The notes below the pieces were generated by a model. The model saw only the letters and a list, made by a program, of their open reading frames with translations, was not told the DNA's origin and did not search any database. A DNA stretch of 64,000 nt from Dehalococcoidia bacterium (GTDB lineage Bacteria > Chloroflexota > Dehalococcoidia > Lucifugimonadales > UBA3495): NCBI GenBank assembly GCA_965243255.1, contig CBDEUH010000004.1, positions 2,034,132 through 2,098,131 of the forward strand, written 5' to 3'. Shown piece by piece: positions 1-7,557 of this stretch. The position numbers and the translations under genes were made by a program. Position 1 is the first letter of the stretch. The number at the start of each line of letters is the position of its first letter.

Positions 1-1
1 G

Positions 2-691
2 CTCCTGGCCCGCTCCGACGGCACCGACGCGGACCTCAGCGCCATTGTCGGAGGGGACGAACCGGTTACCATTCAGACCGCTTTGCCGGCCCTGCTGGAT
101 GACAACACCATGATTGTGTATGTCGTGGACGATTCGGGCAGCATGGCGGACAAGCTGCTGCCGCTGCATCAGGCTCTGCATGAAGTCGCCGCCAAACCCA
201 CCGACAACAGCCAAATCGCCCTGCTGATGTTCGGCAATACCAACCAGGTGCTGTTCGATTTCACCGAACCCGATGACGCTCCCTGGGACGACGCAATTCC
301 GGCGTTCACTGCCAACAGCGGCGGAACGGCCATGTTTGCGGCCCTGGTGGAAGCCCTGGCCATGCTGCCCGACCAGGACGTGTGCCGTGATGAATCCCGG
401 TTCTTCTTCTTCAATAGGACCGTTTGCCGGGAGAATCGCATCGTGCTCATGTCTGACGGTATCGCCAATGACGCCTTTGTGGCCAACAATGTAACGCAGG
501 CGTATTTGACGCCCGCGCAGGAGGCCAAGCTATCGCAGGAACAATTTGACATCGCCGAATCGGTCATCGAACAACTGACGCAATCCAAAGTTCCGGTGGA
601 TACCATCGCTTTGGGCATCGACGCCGACGTGCAGGGATTGAGGCTGATTTCCAACCTGACCGGCGGCACGTTCATAGAGGCCTATCACTGA
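2..691 (+). CDS. von Willebrand factor type A (vWA) domain protein, 5' end cut by window edge
   Basis: The frame is open from nt 2, with no stop upstream of the listed start at 83. MIDAS-like DxSxS motif 'VVDDSGSM', later 'SGGTAM' and 'LMSDG', typical of the vWA fold. Confidence 0.75.
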   Translation, partial: LLARSDGTDADLSAIVGGDEPVTIQTALPALLDDNTMIVYVVDDSGSMADKLLPLHQALHEVAAKPTDNSQIALLMFGNTNQVLFDFTEPDDAPWDDAIPAFTANSGGTAMFAALVEALAMLPDQDVCRDESRFFFFNRTVCRENRIVLMSDGIANDAFVANNVTQAYLTPAQEAKLSQEQFDIAESVIEQLTQSKVPVDTIALGIDADVQGLRLISNLTGGTFIEAYH

Positions 692-711
692 CCGGCGCCG
701 GTTCTGCCGGC

Positions 712-1140
712 TCATTCCCACACCCCCAGCTCCACCGGCCCGTCCTGGCGGAAGGTCGCCTCGAAGCGCACGGGCTCGCCGGCCCGGCTGCCGATGCGAT
801 AGGACAGGCACACAAACCCGCCGGATACGCGACGCTGCCCCCTGGCCTTGCCCGCCGGTCCGTACTGCACCGTTACGGAGCGGCCCACAATGCCCGACAA
901 CACGGCGTCCGGCCCAACGTTCAGCGCGTCGTCCCACAGGCCGTACAGGGTGAACTCCTGGGCCGCCTCCGGTCCGGCCGCGGTGCGCGCGGTGGTGTCG
1001 TTCACGCCGGTGATGTCCCGCGGGCTCAAGGCGCGCCCCAGGGGGCCGATGCGCTCCACCCAGGGCGACAGGTCGCGCAGGAGGCCGTCCCCGTCCGCTA
1101 CGGCCACGTAGCTGTGGCCAGCGCTGGCGTATCCGGTCAT
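712..1140 (-). CDS. small phage structural protein, tail-tube-like (function uncertain)
   Basis: 142 aa from ATG at 1140, 2 nt after the stop of the upstream gene. The listed extension to 1308 overlaps that gene and is rejected. The beta-rich C-terminus 'VTVQYGPAG..RVSGGFVCLSY..VRFEATF' and the position after the connector gene resemble siphovirus major tail/tube-like proteins. No diagnostic motif. Confidence 0.45.
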   Translation of the reverse strand: MTGYASAGHSYVAVADGDGLLRDLSPWVERIGPLGRALSPRDITGVNDTTARTAAGPEAAQEFTLYGLWDDALNVGPDAVLSGIVGRSVTVQYGPAGKARGQRRVSGGFVCLSYRIGSRAGEPVRFEATFRQDGPVELGVWE

Positions 1141-1142
1141 GG

Positions 1143-2006
1143 CTACACCCCCAGAACCGAGCTGCGACGGCGGTACGGAGCCAGCAGGGCCCGGGCCGTG
1201 GAGGAGACGCCGCCAACGTCTCCCCCACCCGCCGCCGGCGAACCCTCGGGCAGCGGGAAAGGACCGCCCGACCTCTCCCGCCACCAGACGGCAGCCTGCA
1301 GCAGGCACGCCTCCGCCACCGCCTTGGGGTAGCGGTACACCGACAACCCCGCGTCAACCGCGTGGGCTGCAGCGTCGGTTCCGTTGACCCCGCGCTGCAC
1401 GGTCAGGGTGGTCGTGCCGTCGCCGTCTGCTGCCCCGATGACGTACAGCTGCTCGTCGCCAATCCGCACGGTATGGCCGGGGGACAGGGCAACTGCGGCG
1501 TCGGCGCTGACCGGAGAGACGGTTACCGTGGTATCTCCGGCGGCTACGGCGGAGTCGGCGGCGACCAGCAACCCGGCGTCTTCGCGGACGTCGCCATAAC
1601 CCCAAACCCCGCTGACGGCGACGCCGGCCCGGTTGAGCGGAAACCGGCGCCGTTGGCTGGATGCCAGCAGGATGCGGGTGTAGGGCCGTCCGCCCGGTTC
1701 CGTTGGCGTCGCGTTCAGCGGATACAGCAGCCAGTCCGCCGCCGGCCAGTTCTGCCACCGTCCGGCGGCGCCCCGCACCCGCAGCGCGCTGACGGCGACC
1801 AGGTCGGGCACCAACAGGGTGGCGCGGCCCCGGCCGTCGAATCGACGTTCGCCGTGAATCGCCGCAAAGTGGCGTCCGCAGTGGCCGTCAATCCAGCGGG
1901 ACGACGCCTCCAGCAACCCCAGCAGCCGGCCGTCGTGGGCGTTGTCGGTAACGTTCAGAACCGAGGGGGATTTCAGGGCGCCCAGGTCAGCATAAGCGTT
2001 AGGCAT
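1143..2006 (-). CDS. phage gp6-like head-tail connector/adaptor-like protein with extra C-terminal region
   Basis: 287 aa with an AGGGAGGG RBS before ATG 2006. The N-terminal ~100 aa ('LLGLLEASSRWIDGHCGRHF..LLVPDLVAVSALRV') resemble the gp6-like connector family. Connectors are usually ~100-120 aa, so ~150 aa are extra. Confidence 0.55.
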   Translation of the reverse strand: MPNAYADLGALKSPSVLNVTDNAHDGRLLGLLEASSRWIDGHCGRHFAAIHGERRFDGRGRATLLVPDLVAVSALRVRGAAGRWQNWPAADWLLYPLNATPTEPGGRPYTRILLASSQRRRFPLNRAGVAVSGVWGYGDVREDAGLLVAADSAVAAGDTTVTVSPVSADAAVALSPGHTVRIGDEQLYVIGAADGDGTTTLTVQRGVNGTDAAAHAVDAGLSVYRYPKAVAEACLLQAAVWWRERSGGPFPLPEGSPAAGGGDVGGVSSTARALLAPYRRRSSVLGV

Positions 2007-2015
2007 AATCCCTCC

Positions 2016-3359
2016 CTACACCGTGATGTTGTATTGCAGGGCGGTGTGCGTCGCCGACGCCCGGGCGCCGGTGCGTTCCATGAAGGCCAGTCGCATACTG
2101 ACCACCATGACGTTCTGCCGCTTCTGGATGTCTCGGGTGGTTTCGATCATGAGCTCCCGGCGGAACCCCAGCCGCCACTGGGTGCGGTTCACCGCCAGCA
2201 GCCGGCCCTTGGTATTGCTGCTGCCGCCGTCGGTTACCATGCCGTCGGCGTCGGTCAACGCCATCTGCTCGGACACGATGACGGGGATGCCGTCCACCTG
2301 GGCCAGCTGCCCGTTGAGCAGGGTCGCCTGGGGCCCCAGCTTGTCCAGGGTGCGGAACTCGTCGATGCCCAGGGACTTGATGTAGGCCCCCACATCGGCG
2401 ACGTAGGCCAGCTCGGACGGGCGCACGCCGTACTTGCCCAGCATCCCGCGGGCCTCGTTGAACATATCGGCGGTGGGCGCGGCGCCGTGGTCGTTGGCCT
2501 GGGCGGTGTTGTCCACCAGGGGCAGGTGCAGCAGCCCGTCGAAACCGACCAGCCAGTGGGCCTTGCCCACCGTGGACGCGGCAATAGTCGCGCCGTCGGC
2601 GTTGATGTTGTTGGTTAGGGTGGTGTCCGCGTTCAGCAGGACGTCGTCAATGACCTCGACGGCGTTGCGCACCAGGGTGCTCCGCACCTCAGCCGCCATG
2701 GCGATGACGGCGTCCTCGTCCAGGGTCAGCGACCAGGGCACTTCTGCCACCAGTTCGTGAGCCGTCAGGGTCTGCCGGGCGGTGGTCAGGGCCGTCTCGG
2801 TAACCGCGGTGTTCTCAACGCCCGGATACCAGGACACGTTGCCCAGCTGGAGGGGTATCTCAAAGGGGTTGGTGGGCATGTCCACGCGGGCGAACAGGGA
2901 CGCTACGTGGGTGGCCACGTTGACGTCGGCCCACAGGGCGGCGGCCTCGGCGGTGGGCACCAGCTCGTCGCCGCTGCCCGCCGTGGTGCTATCCATGGCG
3001 GCCTTCAGGTTGGCTTGCCAGTCGGCCAGAAGGCGGGGGTTCACGTCGCCAGGTGTGCCTGGTAAAGGGTCGTGTTGCTGCGCCGCCAGCACGCTGCGCA
3101 CGCAGGCCAGGTCGAGGGCGTCCATCCCCCGGTACTTCCCGAAGGGGACGCGGGGGCGGTCACCGTCGCCGTATTGGGCCAGCATGGCCTGGCGTTCGCC
3201 GGCCCGCTGCTTCTCGGTAAGTTCGTTCACTGCCCGGCCCAGCCGGTCCAGTTCCTCCTGCAGGGGCGGGATGTCGGCGTCCAGCCGCTGGCGGTAGAAA
3301 TCCCGCACCTCGGCCACTTCGTTCTTGATGGTTTCCAGTTCCCAGCTCGAAAGCGTCAT
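2016..3359 (-). CDS. HK97-family phage major capsid protein with N-terminal delta (scaffold-like) domain
   Basis: 447 aa. An N-terminal coiled-coil segment ('ELETIKNEVAEVRDFYRQRLD..LDRLGRAVNELTEKQ') is followed by a capsid-like body. The gene sits immediately downstream of the prohead protease, with a GGAGA RBS. Confidence 0.8.
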   Translation of the reverse strand: MTLSSWELETIKNEVAEVRDFYRQRLDADIPPLQEELDRLGRAVNELTEKQRAGERQAMLAQYGDGDRPRVPFGKYRGMDALDLACVRSVLAAQQHDPLPGTPGDVNPRLLADWQANLKAAMDSTTAGSGDELVPTAEAAALWADVNVATHVASLFARVDMPTNPFEIPLQLGNVSWYPGVENTAVTETALTTARQTLTAHELVAEVPWSLTLDEDAVIAMAAEVRSTLVRNAVEVIDDVLLNADTTLTNNINADGATIAASTVGKAHWLVGFDGLLHLPLVDNTAQANDHGAAPTADMFNEARGMLGKYGVRPSELAYVADVGAYIKSLGIDEFRTLDKLGPQATLLNGQLAQVDGIPVIVSEQMALTDADGMVTDGGSSNTKGRLLAVNRTQWRLGFRRELMIETTRDIQKRQNVMVVSMRLAFMERTGARASATHTALQYNITV

Positions 3360-3410
3360 AATCTTTGCGTTCTCCTTTTTTGGATTAACTGTCTTGATAA
3401 AGGCCTATGC

Positions 3411-3941
3411 TTACTGCCGCAGTTCCCGCAGCAACCCCACCACCTCACTCACCGCTGGCCCCGTCTGGCTGAGGGAAAGGACATTCTCGCGGAGCAGCGC
3501 GCCCTGGTTGGCCGGCACGGGAACGGCGCTGATTTCCAGCAGTTCCTGCTCCAGGAAACGGATGCCGAGGAAGGCTCCGGTGCGGGGGTCCCGTCGTTCC
3601 TCGAACCGCAGGGGGCGGAAGCCTACGGAGACGCCCTGCTGGTAGCCGCTGCGGTACAGCGCCTCAACCTCCTGGGCGAACTCGGTGGGGGCGAACTCCA
3701 AGTGGGCCAGCAGGGCCCGGCCGTCGCTCCATACCGATTGGGCGCGCCCGATGGCCGGGCGGCGATAGTCGTGGGCCCACAGCACCACGGGGTTCGCCCG
3801 GTAGGCGTCCAGACGCCAGCCGTCGGGCGATACTACGTCGCCGTGACGGTCCACGGCGCCCGAGGACACTACGAAAGTCAGCGGGGCATCGCCGGCGGCG
3901 GTGGTGTCCTTAAGCGCCCACTTACGGGTCAGATTCGTCAT
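3411..3941 (-). CDS. HK97-family prohead (capsid maturation) protease
   Basis: 177 aa from ATG 3941, preceded by AGGAGG at 3946-3951. 'FVVSSGAVDRHGDVVSPDGW..ANPVVLWAHD' is the characteristic N-terminal region of this protease family. The listed start at 4001 lacks an RBS. Confidence 0.8.
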   Translation of the reverse strand: MTNLTRKWALKDTTAAGDAPLTFVVSSGAVDRHGDVVSPDGWRLDAYRANPVVLWAHDYRRPAIGRAQSVWSDGRALLAHLEFAPTEFAQEVEALYRSGYQQGVSVGFRPLRFEERRDPRTGAFLGIRFLEQELLEISAVPVPANQGALLRENVLSLSQTGPAVSEVVGLLRELRQ

Positions 3942-3999: not shown

Positions 4000-4050
4000 A
4001 AAAAGCCGGCGGAACCGACCCGGCATCAGGTCGGTCCTACCGGCTGTTTT
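4000..4050 (-). terminator. strong intrinsic terminator (bidirectional geometry) just upstream of the prohead protease gene
   Basis: GCCGG(4005-09)/CCGGC(4040-44) plus GGAACCGACC(4011-20)/GGTCGGTCC(4029-37) gives ~14 bp with one bulge and an 8-nt loop. It is flanked by AAAAA (4000-04, TTTTT on the minus strand) and TGTTTT (4045-50). Confidence 0.7.
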
Positions 4051-4180: not shown

Positions 4181-4300
4181 GATTGGGGTGTTGGTTGGGG
4201 TTGCCTCCGGTGGTTGGTGTTGGGTAGCCTGCGTGAGGTCGGTTTCCGGAATTCACTTTGGTCGTTGTCAGTCCCACGGCCGGGGGGTTCTTACGCACTT

Positions 4301-4488
4301 CCACTTCCAGTGTCTATGACGGTAGTCGGTTCTCCGCCAATGGCAGCTGTGGTCGCACCGTGCCACTTCCAGTGTCTATGACGGTAGTCGGTTCTCCGCC
4401 AATGGCAGCTGTGGCCGCACCGTTGCCACTTCCAGTGTCTATGACGGTAGTCGGTTCTCCGTCAATGGCAGCTGTGGCCGCACCGTTC
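4301..4488. repeat. tandem repeat, 3 units of 62-63 nt
   Basis: Units start at 4301, 4363 and 4426 with 'ccacttccagtgtctatgacggtagtcggttctccgccaatggcagctgtgg(t/c)cgcaccgt'. The copies differ by only about 3 substitutions/indels. Confidence 0.95.
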
Positions 4489-4594
4489 GTGCGATTTAGG
4501 ATTAGCTGACTGTTTTTGGCCGTTGACGACCGCAGTGATGTTGACCTCGTTGGCAGGCTGGGTTGGGTTACCGATTTGCGCTAGCGATGAGGCT

Positions 4595-4624
4595 ATTATG
4601 AACGGACGTTCTTATATTTGTCAA
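4595..4624 (-). promoter_or_regulatory. sigma70-type promoter pointing toward the repeats and capsid operon
   Basis: On the minus strand: TTGACA (4624-4619), 18-nt spacer, CATAAT (4600-4595). Confidence 0.55.
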
Positions 4625-5425: not shown

Positions 5426-7198
5426 ATGGACGTCCAGTTGCTGATGACGGAAACCACGCAAAATATCACGCCCCCCGGCAGCGCGCCGCACCGGGCGGCT
5501 TCCGGCAGTTTGCAGCCTCAGGCAGACTGGCCGGTCAACGGCGCCGTCAACGGCTCCGGCCTGGTGTTCAAGCCCGCTACCGAGGCCTGGGAATTCGAAG
5601 AGATTTCCCAGCTCAACTATGCCTCCTTCGTCGAAGAGGTGCCCCAGCATCCCGCCAACGACGACCATACCCTGGTGGACCGTTTCCACACCGAGAATAC
5701 CTATTTCATCTGCCGGCGGGAGCAGGAACTACTGGGGATGATTTGCGTCCGCGACCGCCGGCCCTTCTCCCTGGACCAGAAGCTTGGCCGGCTGGAAGAC
5801 CACCTGCCCCAGGCCGAAGGAGCCCGCCTCTGCGAGGTGCGCCTGCTGACGGTGCGGCCTGATTTGCGCGGCGCGCGCATCCTCCCCGGCCTGCTCACCA
5901 TGATGGCCCGGTACTGCCACGAAGGAGGCTACGACTACGTGGTGATGTCCGGTCGCGTCTCCCAGCAGCGGCTCTACCGCCGCATCGGGTTCATACCCTT
6001 CGGCCCGGTGGTGGGCGACGACGACGCGCCCTATCAGCCGATGTATCGGCCCGTGGGCAACGTCGCGGTGGAGTTTGCAGGCCAGTTCCACGAAGCGGTT
6101 GACGCACCCGCCGGCGATCCGGTCATACTCACGCCCGGCCCGGTGGCCATGCCCGAAACCGTTGCCCAGGCCTTCCGCCGCCCGCCGCTGTCCCACCGCC
6201 TGCCCGAGTTCCGGAGGTTGATGCGCAGCGCCCGGCAGGGTTTGTGCCGGCTCACCGGCGCCAAGCACTGCGCCATTATGGTCGGGTCCGGCACCATGGC
6301 CAACGACGTGGTGGCGGCCCAGCTGTCCCGGCTCAACGCTCCGGGTGTCATCGTAACCGCCGGCGAGTTCGGCGAGCGCCTGCTGGACCATGCCAACCGC
6401 ATGGGCCTGCGCTACACTCCCGTGTCGCACCAATGGGGCGCGCCGCTGGACTATGACCGCATCCAGCAGGCGGTGGCCGAGACCAGTTCAGCCACCGATG
6501 CCGGCGGCTGGCTGTGGACGGTGCACTGCGAGACATCCTCCGGCGCGCTGGCCGACCTGCCCCGGCTCAAAGCCATCTGCCAAAAGCACAACGCCCACCT
6601 GGCCCTGGACTGCATCAGCAGCATCGCCACTACCCACGTTGACCTGTCCGGCGTCCGGCTGGCCAGCGGCGCCAGCGGGAAGGGGCTAGCGGCTTATCCC
6701 GGCCTGGGGCTGGTATTCTGCCAGGAGCGTCCCGAACCCGACCCCGCGCTGCCCCGTTACCTGGACCTGGGTCTGCACTGCGCCGGTGAAGACGACGGCG
6801 CCGTGCCCTTCACACTGTCCTCCAACCTGTTGGCGGCGTTGGAGGCCGGCGTGGCGCGTCAAACGCCGGAACTGCTGACACAGGTGGAGGAAGATGGACG
6901 GTGGCTGCGTCAACAGCTGCGCGCGCTGGGTCTGACGCTGGTGGCATCGGAGGCGGAGAGCATCGGCGCGGTAACCACCATCGCGTTGGCGGAAAACGGC
7001 ATCGACTCGGAGCAGATGGGGCGCGCCCTGGATTCCCTGGGCTTCTGCACGTCCTACGCCAGCGGCTATCTGCGCGAGCGCAACTGGCTGCAAATCTGCC
7101 TGCTGGGGGAAGTGAGCCGCCCGCAACTGGAACGGCTGCTGCCCGTGCTGGCGGCGCAGCTGGACGCCCTGACGCGCGTTCGAATCGCCACGGGCTAG
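5426..7198 (+). CDS. GNAT N-acetyltransferase domain fused to class V aminotransferase domain
   Basis: The N-terminal ~200 aa are GNAT-like ('LCEVRLLTVRPDLRGARI..YRRIGF'). The remainder is class-V aminotransferase-like ('ILTPGPVAMPETV..SHRLPEF..VGSGT'). Start is uncertain: ATG 5426 or 5444; the listed 5396 is TTG. Confidence 0.7.
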   Translation: MDVQLLMTETTQNITPPGSAPHRAASGSLQPQADWPVNGAVNGSGLVFKPATEAWEFEEISQLNYASFVEEVPQHPANDDHTLVDRFHTENTYFICRREQELLGMICVRDRRPFSLDQKLGRLEDHLPQAEGARLCEVRLLTVRPDLRGARILPGLLTMMARYCHEGGYDYVVMSGRVSQQRLYRRIGFIPFGPVVGDDDAPYQPMYRPVGNVAVEFAGQFHEAVDAPAGDPVILTPGPVAMPETVAQAFRRPPLSHRLPEFRRLMRSARQGLCRLTGAKHCAIMVGSGTMANDVVAAQLSRLNAPGVIVTAGEFGERLLDHANRMGLRYTPVSHQWGAPLDYDRIQQAVAETSSATDAGGWLWTVHCETSSGALADLPRLKAICQKHNAHLALDCISSIATTHVDLSGVRLASGASGKGLAAYPGLGLVFCQERPEPDPALPRYLDLGLHCAGEDDGAVPFTLSSNLLAALEAGVARQTPELLTQVEEDGRWLRQQLRALGLTLVASEAESIGAVTTIALAENGIDSEQMGRALDSLGFCTSYASGYLRERNWLQICLLGEVSRPQLERLLPVLAAQLDALTRVRIATG

Positions 7199-7557
7199 TC
7201 CAGCAACGCCAGTACGCGGTGCACAAACCTATGCACATACTGTGGATCCCGCTGTAACTGCAGCTCATCCATAAACAGATGGTAGAAGTTGGCGTGGAAC
7301 TTTTCCGCGACAGCGAAATCGGAACCCAGAGCACTATCGCCCTGTTCCGTCGCCAGCCTCTCTGCCGCAATTTTCAAGTCCCGGTGGCTGCCGTATTTCC
7401 AACCTCGCCGCTGAGCCACCGCGATGACGGCCTGGGACGCTGCCCCCCATAACTTCTCCGACCCTTGGGCCTCGTCGCCGGCGGCAAACTCCCGCTCGGA
7501 CGCGGCCAGGAACTCCAGGGCTGTCGCTGCGCGGCGCTGCTCAGTCATAGTAGTCAT
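7195..7557 (-). CDS. PaREP1-like small helical protein (HEPN-related fold)
   Basis: 120 aa. 'GSEKLWGAASQAVIAVAQRRGW' and 'AEKFHANFYH' match my recollection of the PaREP1/PaREP8 family pattern. Its 3' end overlaps the convergent aminotransferase gene by 4 nt. Confidence 0.5.
   Translation of the reverse strand: MTTMTEQRRAATALEFLAASEREFAAGDEAQGSEKLWGAASQAVIAVAQRRGWKYGSHRDLKIAAERLATEQGDSALGSDFAVAEKFHANFYHLFMDELQLQRDPQYVHRFVHRVLALLD

Follow-up and report, generated by a model that had tools for sequence, protein, structure and literature searches.

The stretch analysed here, 64,000 nucleotides (nt) in all and referred to throughout as the window, spans positions 2034132-2098131 of contig C4 (CBDEUH010000004.1) in the genome of a Dehalococcoidia bacterium (3.17 Mb, 63.7% GC). 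Close to one end of the window, between positions 712 and 4001, the list of open reading frames (ORFs) contains four minus-strand ORFs in the same orientation, which together encode components of a phage-type head and the start of a tail (lengths in amino acids, aa):

3411..3941, minus strand: prohead (head maturation) serine protease, 176 aa from the ATG at 3941 (Pfam PF04586 Peptidase_S78, 1.9e-9; phrog_80, 2.2e-20)

2016..3359, minus strand: HK97-type major capsid protein, 447 aa (PF05065, 6e-8; phrog_10, 2.9e-13)

1143..2006, minus strand: head–tail adaptor with a gp6-like N-terminal half and an extra C-terminal domain, 287 aa (phrog_442, 4.5e-15, residues 3-157)

712..1140, minus strand: tail tube protein, 142 aa (phrog_10528, 2.3e-9)

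The protease ORF is readable back to a TTG at 4001; the ATG at 3941 is preceded by AGGAGG at 6 nt and marks the point at which the conserved part of the protein starts. Orthologues of the protease are found at 76 of 80 related loci, with N-termini that differ from locus to locus. In a sequence search the capsid protein matched the capsid proteins 8ho3, 5tjt and 8zvi in the PDB, and its gene gives the sole PF05065 match in the genome. Ahead of the Pfam capsid domain lie around 130 helix-prone residues, and a separate scaffold gene is absent, which makes it plausible that this N-terminal portion is a delta-like (scaffold) domain. In the adaptor, C-terminal residues 151-235 match part of the gpJ-like protein 8rk3_o and of the minor tail protein 8vjh_A. 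Sequence-profile searches of the PDB gave nothing useful for the tube protein, which was identified by fold comparison alone: its AlphaFold (AF2) model, with a predicted local distance difference test score (pLDDT) of 84, matches lambda gpV, the monocin tube, the phage R4C tube and the tube of the Rhodobacter capsulatus gene transfer agent (RcGTA) at template modelling (TM) scores of approximately 0.65-0.75 in Foldseek, with TMq 0.69 and TMt 0.75 for the RcGTA protein (6tba_50).

A preliminary description of this DNA had called the four genes intact, tightly spaced and free of decay, with a composition matching the host and a good Shine–Dalgarno sequence on each gene. The ORFs are indeed intact, the intergenic gaps are 51, 9 and 2 nt, and GC content at third codon positions is 0.82-0.89 in the block, the same as in adjoining host genes; the Shine–Dalgarno sequences are good for the protease, capsid and adaptor genes but weaker for the tube gene (GGGGGTG). 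The same description had called the module portal-less and terminase-less. This is true of the locus, as portal, terminase, tape measure, lysis and integrase genes were all absent from the first 11 kb of the window and from the 20 kb leftward of it, but not of the genome, where the search for portal, terminase and tail genes that the description had proposed located both a portal and a large terminase (TerL) 76 kb away and a tail-tip hub just outside the window. The system has at least two loci in this genome:

C4:1956436-1959798: locus A, encoding a small membrane coiled-coil protein, a Zn-ribbon protein, the large terminase and the portal

C4:2031845-2038072 (window position 3941 down to 2.3 kb left of the window): locus B, encoding the protease, capsid protein, adaptor, tube, an inserted von Willebrand factor A (vWA) protein and the hub

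1..691 of the window, plus strand, with its start lying left of the window: membrane-anchored vWA-domain gene (Pfam VWA_2, 1.2e-9)

C4:2031845-2033881, minus strand, directly left of the vWA gene and outside the window: tail-tip hub, 678 aa, identified by its predicted fold

The convergent vWA gene had been taken for the edge of the module, a view that falls with the hub gene beyond it. This 678-aa ORF belongs to the module, being tube-adjacent in relatives. The vWA gene has therefore been inserted into the tail portion of the operon, where it separates tube from hub, and does not count among the particle genes. In relatives, the tube and hub genes are either adjacent or overlapping (L050, L078 and L081) or parted by a variable cassette on the opposite strand. 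As with the tube, sequence-profile searches of the PDB gave nothing for the hub, and fold comparison alone identified it. Its AF2 model (pLDDT 90.4, predicted TM score 0.88) has the fold of a tail hub of the gp27/VgrG/Mu gp44/Tal type with an inserted concanavalin A (ConA)-like carbohydrate-binding domain, and it aligns over its full length with a viral protein (TMq 0.78), in addition to matching many siphovirus minor tail proteins. No full prophage continues past the left edge of the window, a possibility that the description had raised against its own interpretation; the one module gene there, the hub, is followed by housekeeping genes.

At locus A, the sole PF04860 portal gene of the genome (C4:1958518-1959798; 2.9e-72) lies 76 kb left of the four-gene block, with the 450-aa TerL gene (phrog_2, 1.6e-43) directly upstream of it. 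TerL retains the Walker A lysine, a Walker B motif (VVVDE) and three nuclease-type acidic motifs, as read from its sequence. In 22 genomes searched with Pfam TerL_ATPase (PF03354), no terminase came up; the enzyme here is of the Terminase_6/phrog_2 type and was found by its position beside the portal. The terminase gene is preceded by a Zn-ribbon gene, probably encoding 84 aa from the ATG at L044:8950, and this in turn by a gene for a 111-aa membrane coiled-coil protein. Housekeeping genes, for a coenzyme A-transferase and a sodium/phosphate transporter, flank the locus. With an S78 protease beside a PF05065 capsid protein, and a portal and TerL at a separate locus, the set belongs with the HK97-like head modules of the Caudoviricetes.

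These unlinked genes occur together across the order. In an order-level sample of 151 genomes, the capsid gene was present in 52 and TerL in 50, with 43 genomes sharing both, and the hub in 34; a portal was found in all 22 capsid-positive genomes tested. In a family-level sample of 61 genomes, 40 carried capsid and portal and 15 neither, leaving six discordant genomes, one with the capsid only and five with the portal only, the latter being mostly incomplete assemblies or carriers of broken portals. TerL lies directly upstream of the portal at 28 of 30 family loci. Gene copies across the order are mostly single and intact, at spacings from a few kilobases to more than one megabase. In the distant relatives represented by L102, L103, L120 and G001, the Zn-ribbon, TerL and portal genes lie a few kilobases upstream of the protease, capsid and adaptor genes on the same strand, and since distant relatives keep this contiguous layout, the scattered state derives from a contiguous phage-like cluster. 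At one locus (L128:10547-18092, in G048) an ATP synthase operon separates the adaptor and terminator genes from the tube and hub genes, so that core host genes split the cluster.

The company kept by the capsid gene bears on one proposal of the preliminary description, that protease and delta-domain capsid protein form an encapsulin-like nanocompartment enclosing enzymes and not DNA. In principle, closed shells can form from a protease together with a capsid protein that has a built-in scaffold domain, and metabolic genes adjoin the block. However, the capsid protein matches the phage family PF05065, with no encapsulin family appearing in the Pfam scan; genes for an adaptor, a tube and a hub follow the capsid gene; a portal and a motif-intact terminase co-occur with it; and there is no conserved cargo gene, because the metabolic neighbours differ between lineages. 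The co-inheritance of portal, terminase, adaptor, tube and hub thus sets the locus apart from encapsulins, and a nanocompartment would be a very surprising outcome.

The closest capsid proteins come from metagenome-assembled genomes of Dehalococcoidia, SAR202 and Chloroflexota, often on multi-megabase contigs, and the host lineage is SAR202-type Dehalococcoidia, with many members from sponges. The block occupies the same chromosomal site in around 40 species, with capsid proteins 79-90% identical and a shared order of GNAT-aminotransferase/glyoxalase, protease, capsid, adaptor, tube, variable insert, hub and flavin adenine dinucleotide (FAD) oxidoreductase. Orthologous ORFs are intact for 79 of 80 capsid, 61 of 62 adaptor and 51 of 53 hub genes, and all 55 tube orthologues found with the 142-aa query are full-length (130-169 aa, nearly all 141-147 aa). 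Internal stops that had appeared in many tube orthologues were an artefact of querying with an over-long ORF of 198 aa, and we discarded them. Protein distances follow those of the flanking FAD oxidoreductase (Mantel r of 0.84 for the capsid protein, 0.92 for the adaptor and 0.94 for the hub; p = 0.0005), and the capsid, adaptor and hub distances are correlated with one another (r 0.86-0.96). A search of IMG/VR returned seven short fragments with a related capsid protein and no complete phage with a close one.

We estimated the ratio of nonsynonymous to synonymous substitution rates (dN/dS) by the Nei–Gojobori method (NG86) from close pairs and within the genome's own clade of 41 species, since saturated dS inflates the values of distant pairs. 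Within this clade the ratio was 0.12 for the capsid gene, 0.25 for the protease, 0.27 for both the adaptor and the tube, and 0.28 for the hub, with 0.054 for the flanking gene; across the family it was 0.16-0.23 for the portal and 0.13-0.33 for TerL. The block is therefore inherited vertically with the chromosome and maintained by purifying selection, and the frameshifts or relaxed selection in orthologous loci that would have spoken for decay were, with few exceptions, not found.

These results also bear on a second proposal of the preliminary description, a prophage remnant. It was right about the phage origin and wrong about decay, given the intact ORFs and dN/dS of 0.12-0.28. In its strongest form this explanation holds that the genes are ordinary, decaying remnants of an old prophage without a function, conserved through recent common ancestry only. 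Such remnants would account for the several tail and lysis functions missing here, for the split portals or stop codons of some relatives and for the whole genera that have lost everything. Yet nearly all ORFs remain intact over 41 to 80 species at a synonymous divergence of approximately 0.6-1.1, dN/dS is low, unlinked loci are kept and lost together, and the composition is fully host-like. Because the retained genes are constrained despite the loss of the terminator and small tail genes, the set does not qualify as a cryptic prophage, and we consider functionless decay improbable.

The third proposal, one scattered locus of a gene transfer agent (GTA)-like or capsid-forming system, gains from each of these observations: the terminase and portal 76 kb away, the hub past the vWA gene, the synteny in approximately 40 species, the selection and the co-occurrence. 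We regard it as probable that the block supplies the head and the proximal tail of a phage-derived particle system whose genes are dispersed, vertically inherited and under selection in SAR202-type Dehalococcoidia, and that this system is GTA-like. It is a candidate for that class. From the gene identities, the tube and hub folds, and the dispersal, synteny, co-occurrence and purifying selection established above, we infer how such a particle might be assembled, what it would contain, and how it would be released and deliver its contents. Transcription would read through a terminator hairpin ahead of each operon, the protease and capsid protein would build a prohead on the portal, and the terminase would fill this prohead with DNA. 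The adaptor would then close the portal, and a very short tail, consisting of one or more tube rings and a trimeric hub, would attach and bind carbohydrate on the surface of a recipient cell. Integrase, replication and excision genes were absent from both loci and their flanks, the parts of the genome screened for them. Because such genes are lacking there and the parts lie far apart, the system should be unable to move as a phage, and a packaged particle would therefore most likely carry host DNA, as in a GTA. The presence of a selected terminase and portal points to DNA packaging, which makes a GTA function the most economical explanation.

Two candidate control sequences lie ahead of the capsid operon in the window:

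4000..4045, minus strand: GC-rich hairpin followed by a T-run (terminator-like), approximately 60 nt before the protease start, read from the sequence

4595..4624, minus strand: strong sigma-70-like promoter TTGACA-18-CATAAT facing the capsid operon (promoter scan, 11/12 matches), with GAACGTCCGTTC in the spacer at 4600-4611

The hairpin has a predicted folding energy of -33.9 kcal/mol (z = -5.1 relative to shuffled sequences), and a hairpin and T-run are also present at locus A, after the coiled-coil gene and before the Zn-ribbon, TerL and portal genes. Comparable elements stand ahead of both the protease and the TerL operons in L102, L103 and L120, and in the first two of these the hairpins of both operons share the core GGGAC(A/G)GACCC. 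In the source genome the two operons share this architecture without shared sequence, and no second copy of the 85-nt leader core of the capsid operon was found in the genome. Between the distal promoter and the hairpin, at approximately 4290-4520 on the minus strand, are three tandem repeats of around 60 nt with the unit GGTGCGGCCACAGCTGCCATTG[AG]CGGAGAACCGACTACCGTCATAGACACTGGAAGTGG.

The promoter at 4595-4624 is one of about 28 genomic copies of a portable element composed of TTGACA, GAAC-N4-GTTC and (C/T)ATAAT, usually then followed by CATCGCTAGCGAAACC. This element accounts for approximately two-thirds of all GAAC-N4-GTTC sites in the genome, of which 42 were observed against 34 expected by composition. 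At the TerL locus, the promoter TTGACG-17-CATTAT has a perfect palindrome, GAACATACGTTC, abutting its -10 element, and both promoter copies at a duplicated locus (C4:2807410-2809544) likewise carry GAACATACGTTC. GAAC-N4-GTTC is the Gram-positive-type LexA box; in this genome the recA promoter has boxes with one mismatch and lexA a degenerate box only. Because the box is missing ahead of the operons in distant relatives and that at lexA is approximate, DNA-damage induction (SOS/LexA-type) is best treated as a lineage-specific lead that these motifs suggest.

Several observations weigh against a dispersed, GTA-like particle system. The dN/dS values of the particle genes are 2 to 5 times that of the housekeeping flank. 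Homology searches with relatives' genes, which could pass over divergent genes elsewhere in the genome, found no tape measure, chaperone, distal tail protein, tail terminator or lysis gene. The tail terminator (137 aa; phrog_17840, 2.7e-22), which lies between the adaptor and tube genes in sister genera, is absent from the source genome and from the whole 41-species clade. Beside the hub, other families encode a chaperone-like protein of around 160-210 aa, a protein of around 80-94 aa and a membrane protein of 71-83 aa, and the source genome has no homologue of any of these three. Some genomes have several TerL-like genes, and the presence here of a second TerL paralogue, also intact, complicates a picture of one system with one copy of each gene. 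Portals are split or bear stop codons in some relatives, and G174, a genome of the same genus assembled as a single 3.3-Mb contig, has an intact capsid gene (89% identical) and no portal at E <= 1e-10; it could serve as a natural knockout for a role of the head genes without a portal. Given these broken portals and the undetectable portal of G174, some lineages can dispense with the system and its loss is under way in places; whole genera have none of the particle genes.

The set encoded here, in which the head, adaptor, tube and hub genes are all present, is thus a reduced version of the particle system. The preliminary description had missed this reduced state, in which no tail terminator, chaperone, tape measure or lysis gene was found in the clade. 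The reduction raises the main rival to a GTA-like system, in which the genes are domesticated but the product of this clade lacks a working tail: tail-less or stub-tailed, DNA-filled capsids would take their tails from a resident or infecting phage, as capsid-forming satellites do, or else the head proteins would interfere with phage assembly as a defence. The clade has lost the terminator and the small tail genes while its head genes, tube and hub remain under selection; no hub was seen in families f5, f14 and f42; and the assembly includes a separate phage-like contig, C1, with tail genes. Borrowed tails are nevertheless hard to square with a tube and a lectin-bearing hub that are intact in the same 41 species at dN/dS of approximately 0.27, the tail encoded on C1 is of another type, contractile and sheath-bearing and accompanied by head genes of its own, and the fixed chromosomal position and the lack of integrase, replication and excision genes at the loci are unlike satellites. 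On balance we think a product without a working tail unlikely, if still deserving more weight than functionless decay.

We had considered contig C1 (43,414 bp; L129/L130) as a source of the missing tail genes and rejected it, as it represents a distinct myovirus-like phage that encodes capsid, protease, sheath and tape measure itself. It encodes a head protease, a capsid protein (phrog_264), a tail sheath (phrog_205), a tape measure, Neck1 and methyltransferase-like proteins, and is probably a myovirus-type prophage or a co-binned phage outside the particle system. Its tail genes resemble those of prophages in G028, G038 and G041.

If the dispersed, GTA-like system is carried one step further, Dehalococcoidia including SAR202 would carry an independently domesticated GTA, the first in Chloroflexota, in which scattered genes are co-ordinated by operon-leading hairpins and, in this lineage, by a LexA-type promoter before the packaging genes, and in which an HK97 head with a minimal tail (adaptor, tube ring or rings and lectin-bearing hub, with no tape measure) moves host DNA between cells of a lineage that ranks among the most abundant in the deep ocean and among sponge symbionts. 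In this full form we put the proposal forward tentatively, as a possibility somewhat short of an even chance. Independent GTA domestications include RcGTA and that of Bartonella (both in Alphaproteobacteria) and those of Desulfovibrio, Brachyspira and Methanococcus; to our knowledge only a handful of such conversions from phage to GTA have been recognized, and we know of none in Chloroflexota. Our search of the literature on gene transfer agents, prophages and capsids in SAR202, Dehalococcoidia and Chloroflexi/Chloroflexota found no such system described.

Although uncultured, SAR202 is dominant in the dark ocean and in the microbiomes of sponges. A particle that belongs to the host and packages DNA would, if real, be a route of gene exchange not accounted for in studies of marine viromes and horizontal transfer, and could explain some of the chromosomal DNA in viral-size fractions. 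Its extreme scattering and minimal tail would bear on the fewest parts that make a delivery-competent particle and on how unlinked loci are co-regulated. To this the window would add a reduced variant, with the terminator lost, a vWA cassette inside the tail operon, a second TerL paralogue and a damage-type promoter.

That paralogue lies within a duplicate at C4:2807410-2809544, outside the window and around 773 kb to the right, which comprises the coiled-coil gene, part of the Zn-ribbon region and TerL at 80-89% DNA identity. The duplicated TerL is intact, with 499 aa and a 42-aa insertion, and there is no portal in the segment. Elsewhere, some genomes have four to seven TerL-like copies (G004 and G134), and TerL matches are split into two or three pieces in G137, G004, G063, G100, G129, G133, G142 and G145. 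The pieces are 50 bp to around 430 bp apart in most of these genomes, overlap in G145 and are separated by 2.9 kb in G137; inteins, introns, homing-endonuclease insertions or frameshifts could each produce such splits.

The block is bordered on its right by genes for a glyoxalase, a GNAT-aminotransferase fusion, a PaREP1 protein and aconitase. On its left, the vWA gene and the 678-aa ORF on the module strand are followed by genes for the FAD oxidoreductase, a major facilitator superfamily transporter, a Lon-like protein, cysteinyl-tRNA synthetase and IspD/IspF. The insertion between tube and hub is part of a wider pattern. In around 20 related species (L054, L056, L059-L066, L068, L070, L072, L073, L079, L083 and L110; equivalent to window positions 1-711) an opposite-strand cassette at this site encodes a vWA protein, a 241-aa protein with a PaREP1/HEPN-like C terminus and one to three coiled-coil membrane proteins of approximately 110 aa, which distantly resemble the coiled-coil protein beside TerL; the source genome retains just the vWA gene. 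The cassette may be a defence or toxin-like unit for which this site is an insertion hot spot. The minus strand of the window also carries, at 7195-7557, a 120-aa gene of the PaREP1 family (HEPN-related), and members of this family recur close to particle loci in several relatives.

Among the closest known systems are the GTAs. As in these viriforms, its structural genes are fixed in the chromosome and passed on vertically (synteny in approximately 40 species, Mantel r 0.84-0.94), purifying selection prevails over decay with split portals in a few relatives as the exceptions, and the two loci, 76 kb apart, have no replication, excision or transfer genes of their own in or beside them. With RcGTA of the alphaproteobacterium Rhodobacter capsulatus (6TBA) it shares chromosomal, phage-derived genes for an HK97-type head and a siphovirus-type tail, vertical inheritance under purifying selection, placement at more than one locus without integrase or replication genes, and an order running from terminase, portal, protease, capsid and adaptor to tube and, further on, hub; the tube model can also be superposed on its RcGTA counterpart (TMq 0.69, TMt 0.75). 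As neither the host phylum, Chloroflexota, nor the sequences are related to those of RcGTA, this is an independent capture. The parts here are far more scattered, lying 76 kb apart in this genome and as much as megabases apart in relatives; this genome yielded no tape measure, distal tail protein, stopper, terminator, head spike or lysis gene; and the hub bears a ConA-like lectin insert. RcGTA is controlled by CtrA/GafA, whereas control here appears to act via a terminator hairpin for each operon and may add a LexA-type box.

Capsid-forming phage-inducible chromosomal islands (cf-PICIs) likewise have their own terminase, portal, protease, HK97 capsid protein and head–tail connector with a reduced or absent tail set. 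They are mobile, with an integrase, replication and regulatory modules and attachment sites, and excise as one unit. The set here differs in having none of these mobility modules at either locus, in being dispersed in two parts 76 kb apart, in holding the same position in around 40 species and in encoding a tube and a hub, and we therefore do not class it with these satellites. The PBSX particle of Bacillus subtilis, a defective prophage, offers a second parallel, in that it is chromosomal, non-infectious and phage-derived and packages host DNA, as the genes suggest for the system here. PBSX is induced by the SOS response, and a LexA-type palindrome abuts the TerL-locus promoter in the present genome. 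PBSX is, however, a single contiguous stretch that includes lysis genes and encodes a complete contractile tail, and only close relatives carry it, whereas the set here is dispersed, minimal and conserved across an order.

A further likeness lies within the order itself, in the prophage-like regions of temperate phages in G028, G038 and G041. These encode a portal, a protease and a capsid protein 52-55% identical to that of the window in the same gene order, but they are contiguous, occur in multiple copies per genome and include long tail genes, among them some for proteins of 845-1269 aa. They are likely the wild relatives of the dispersed particle system.

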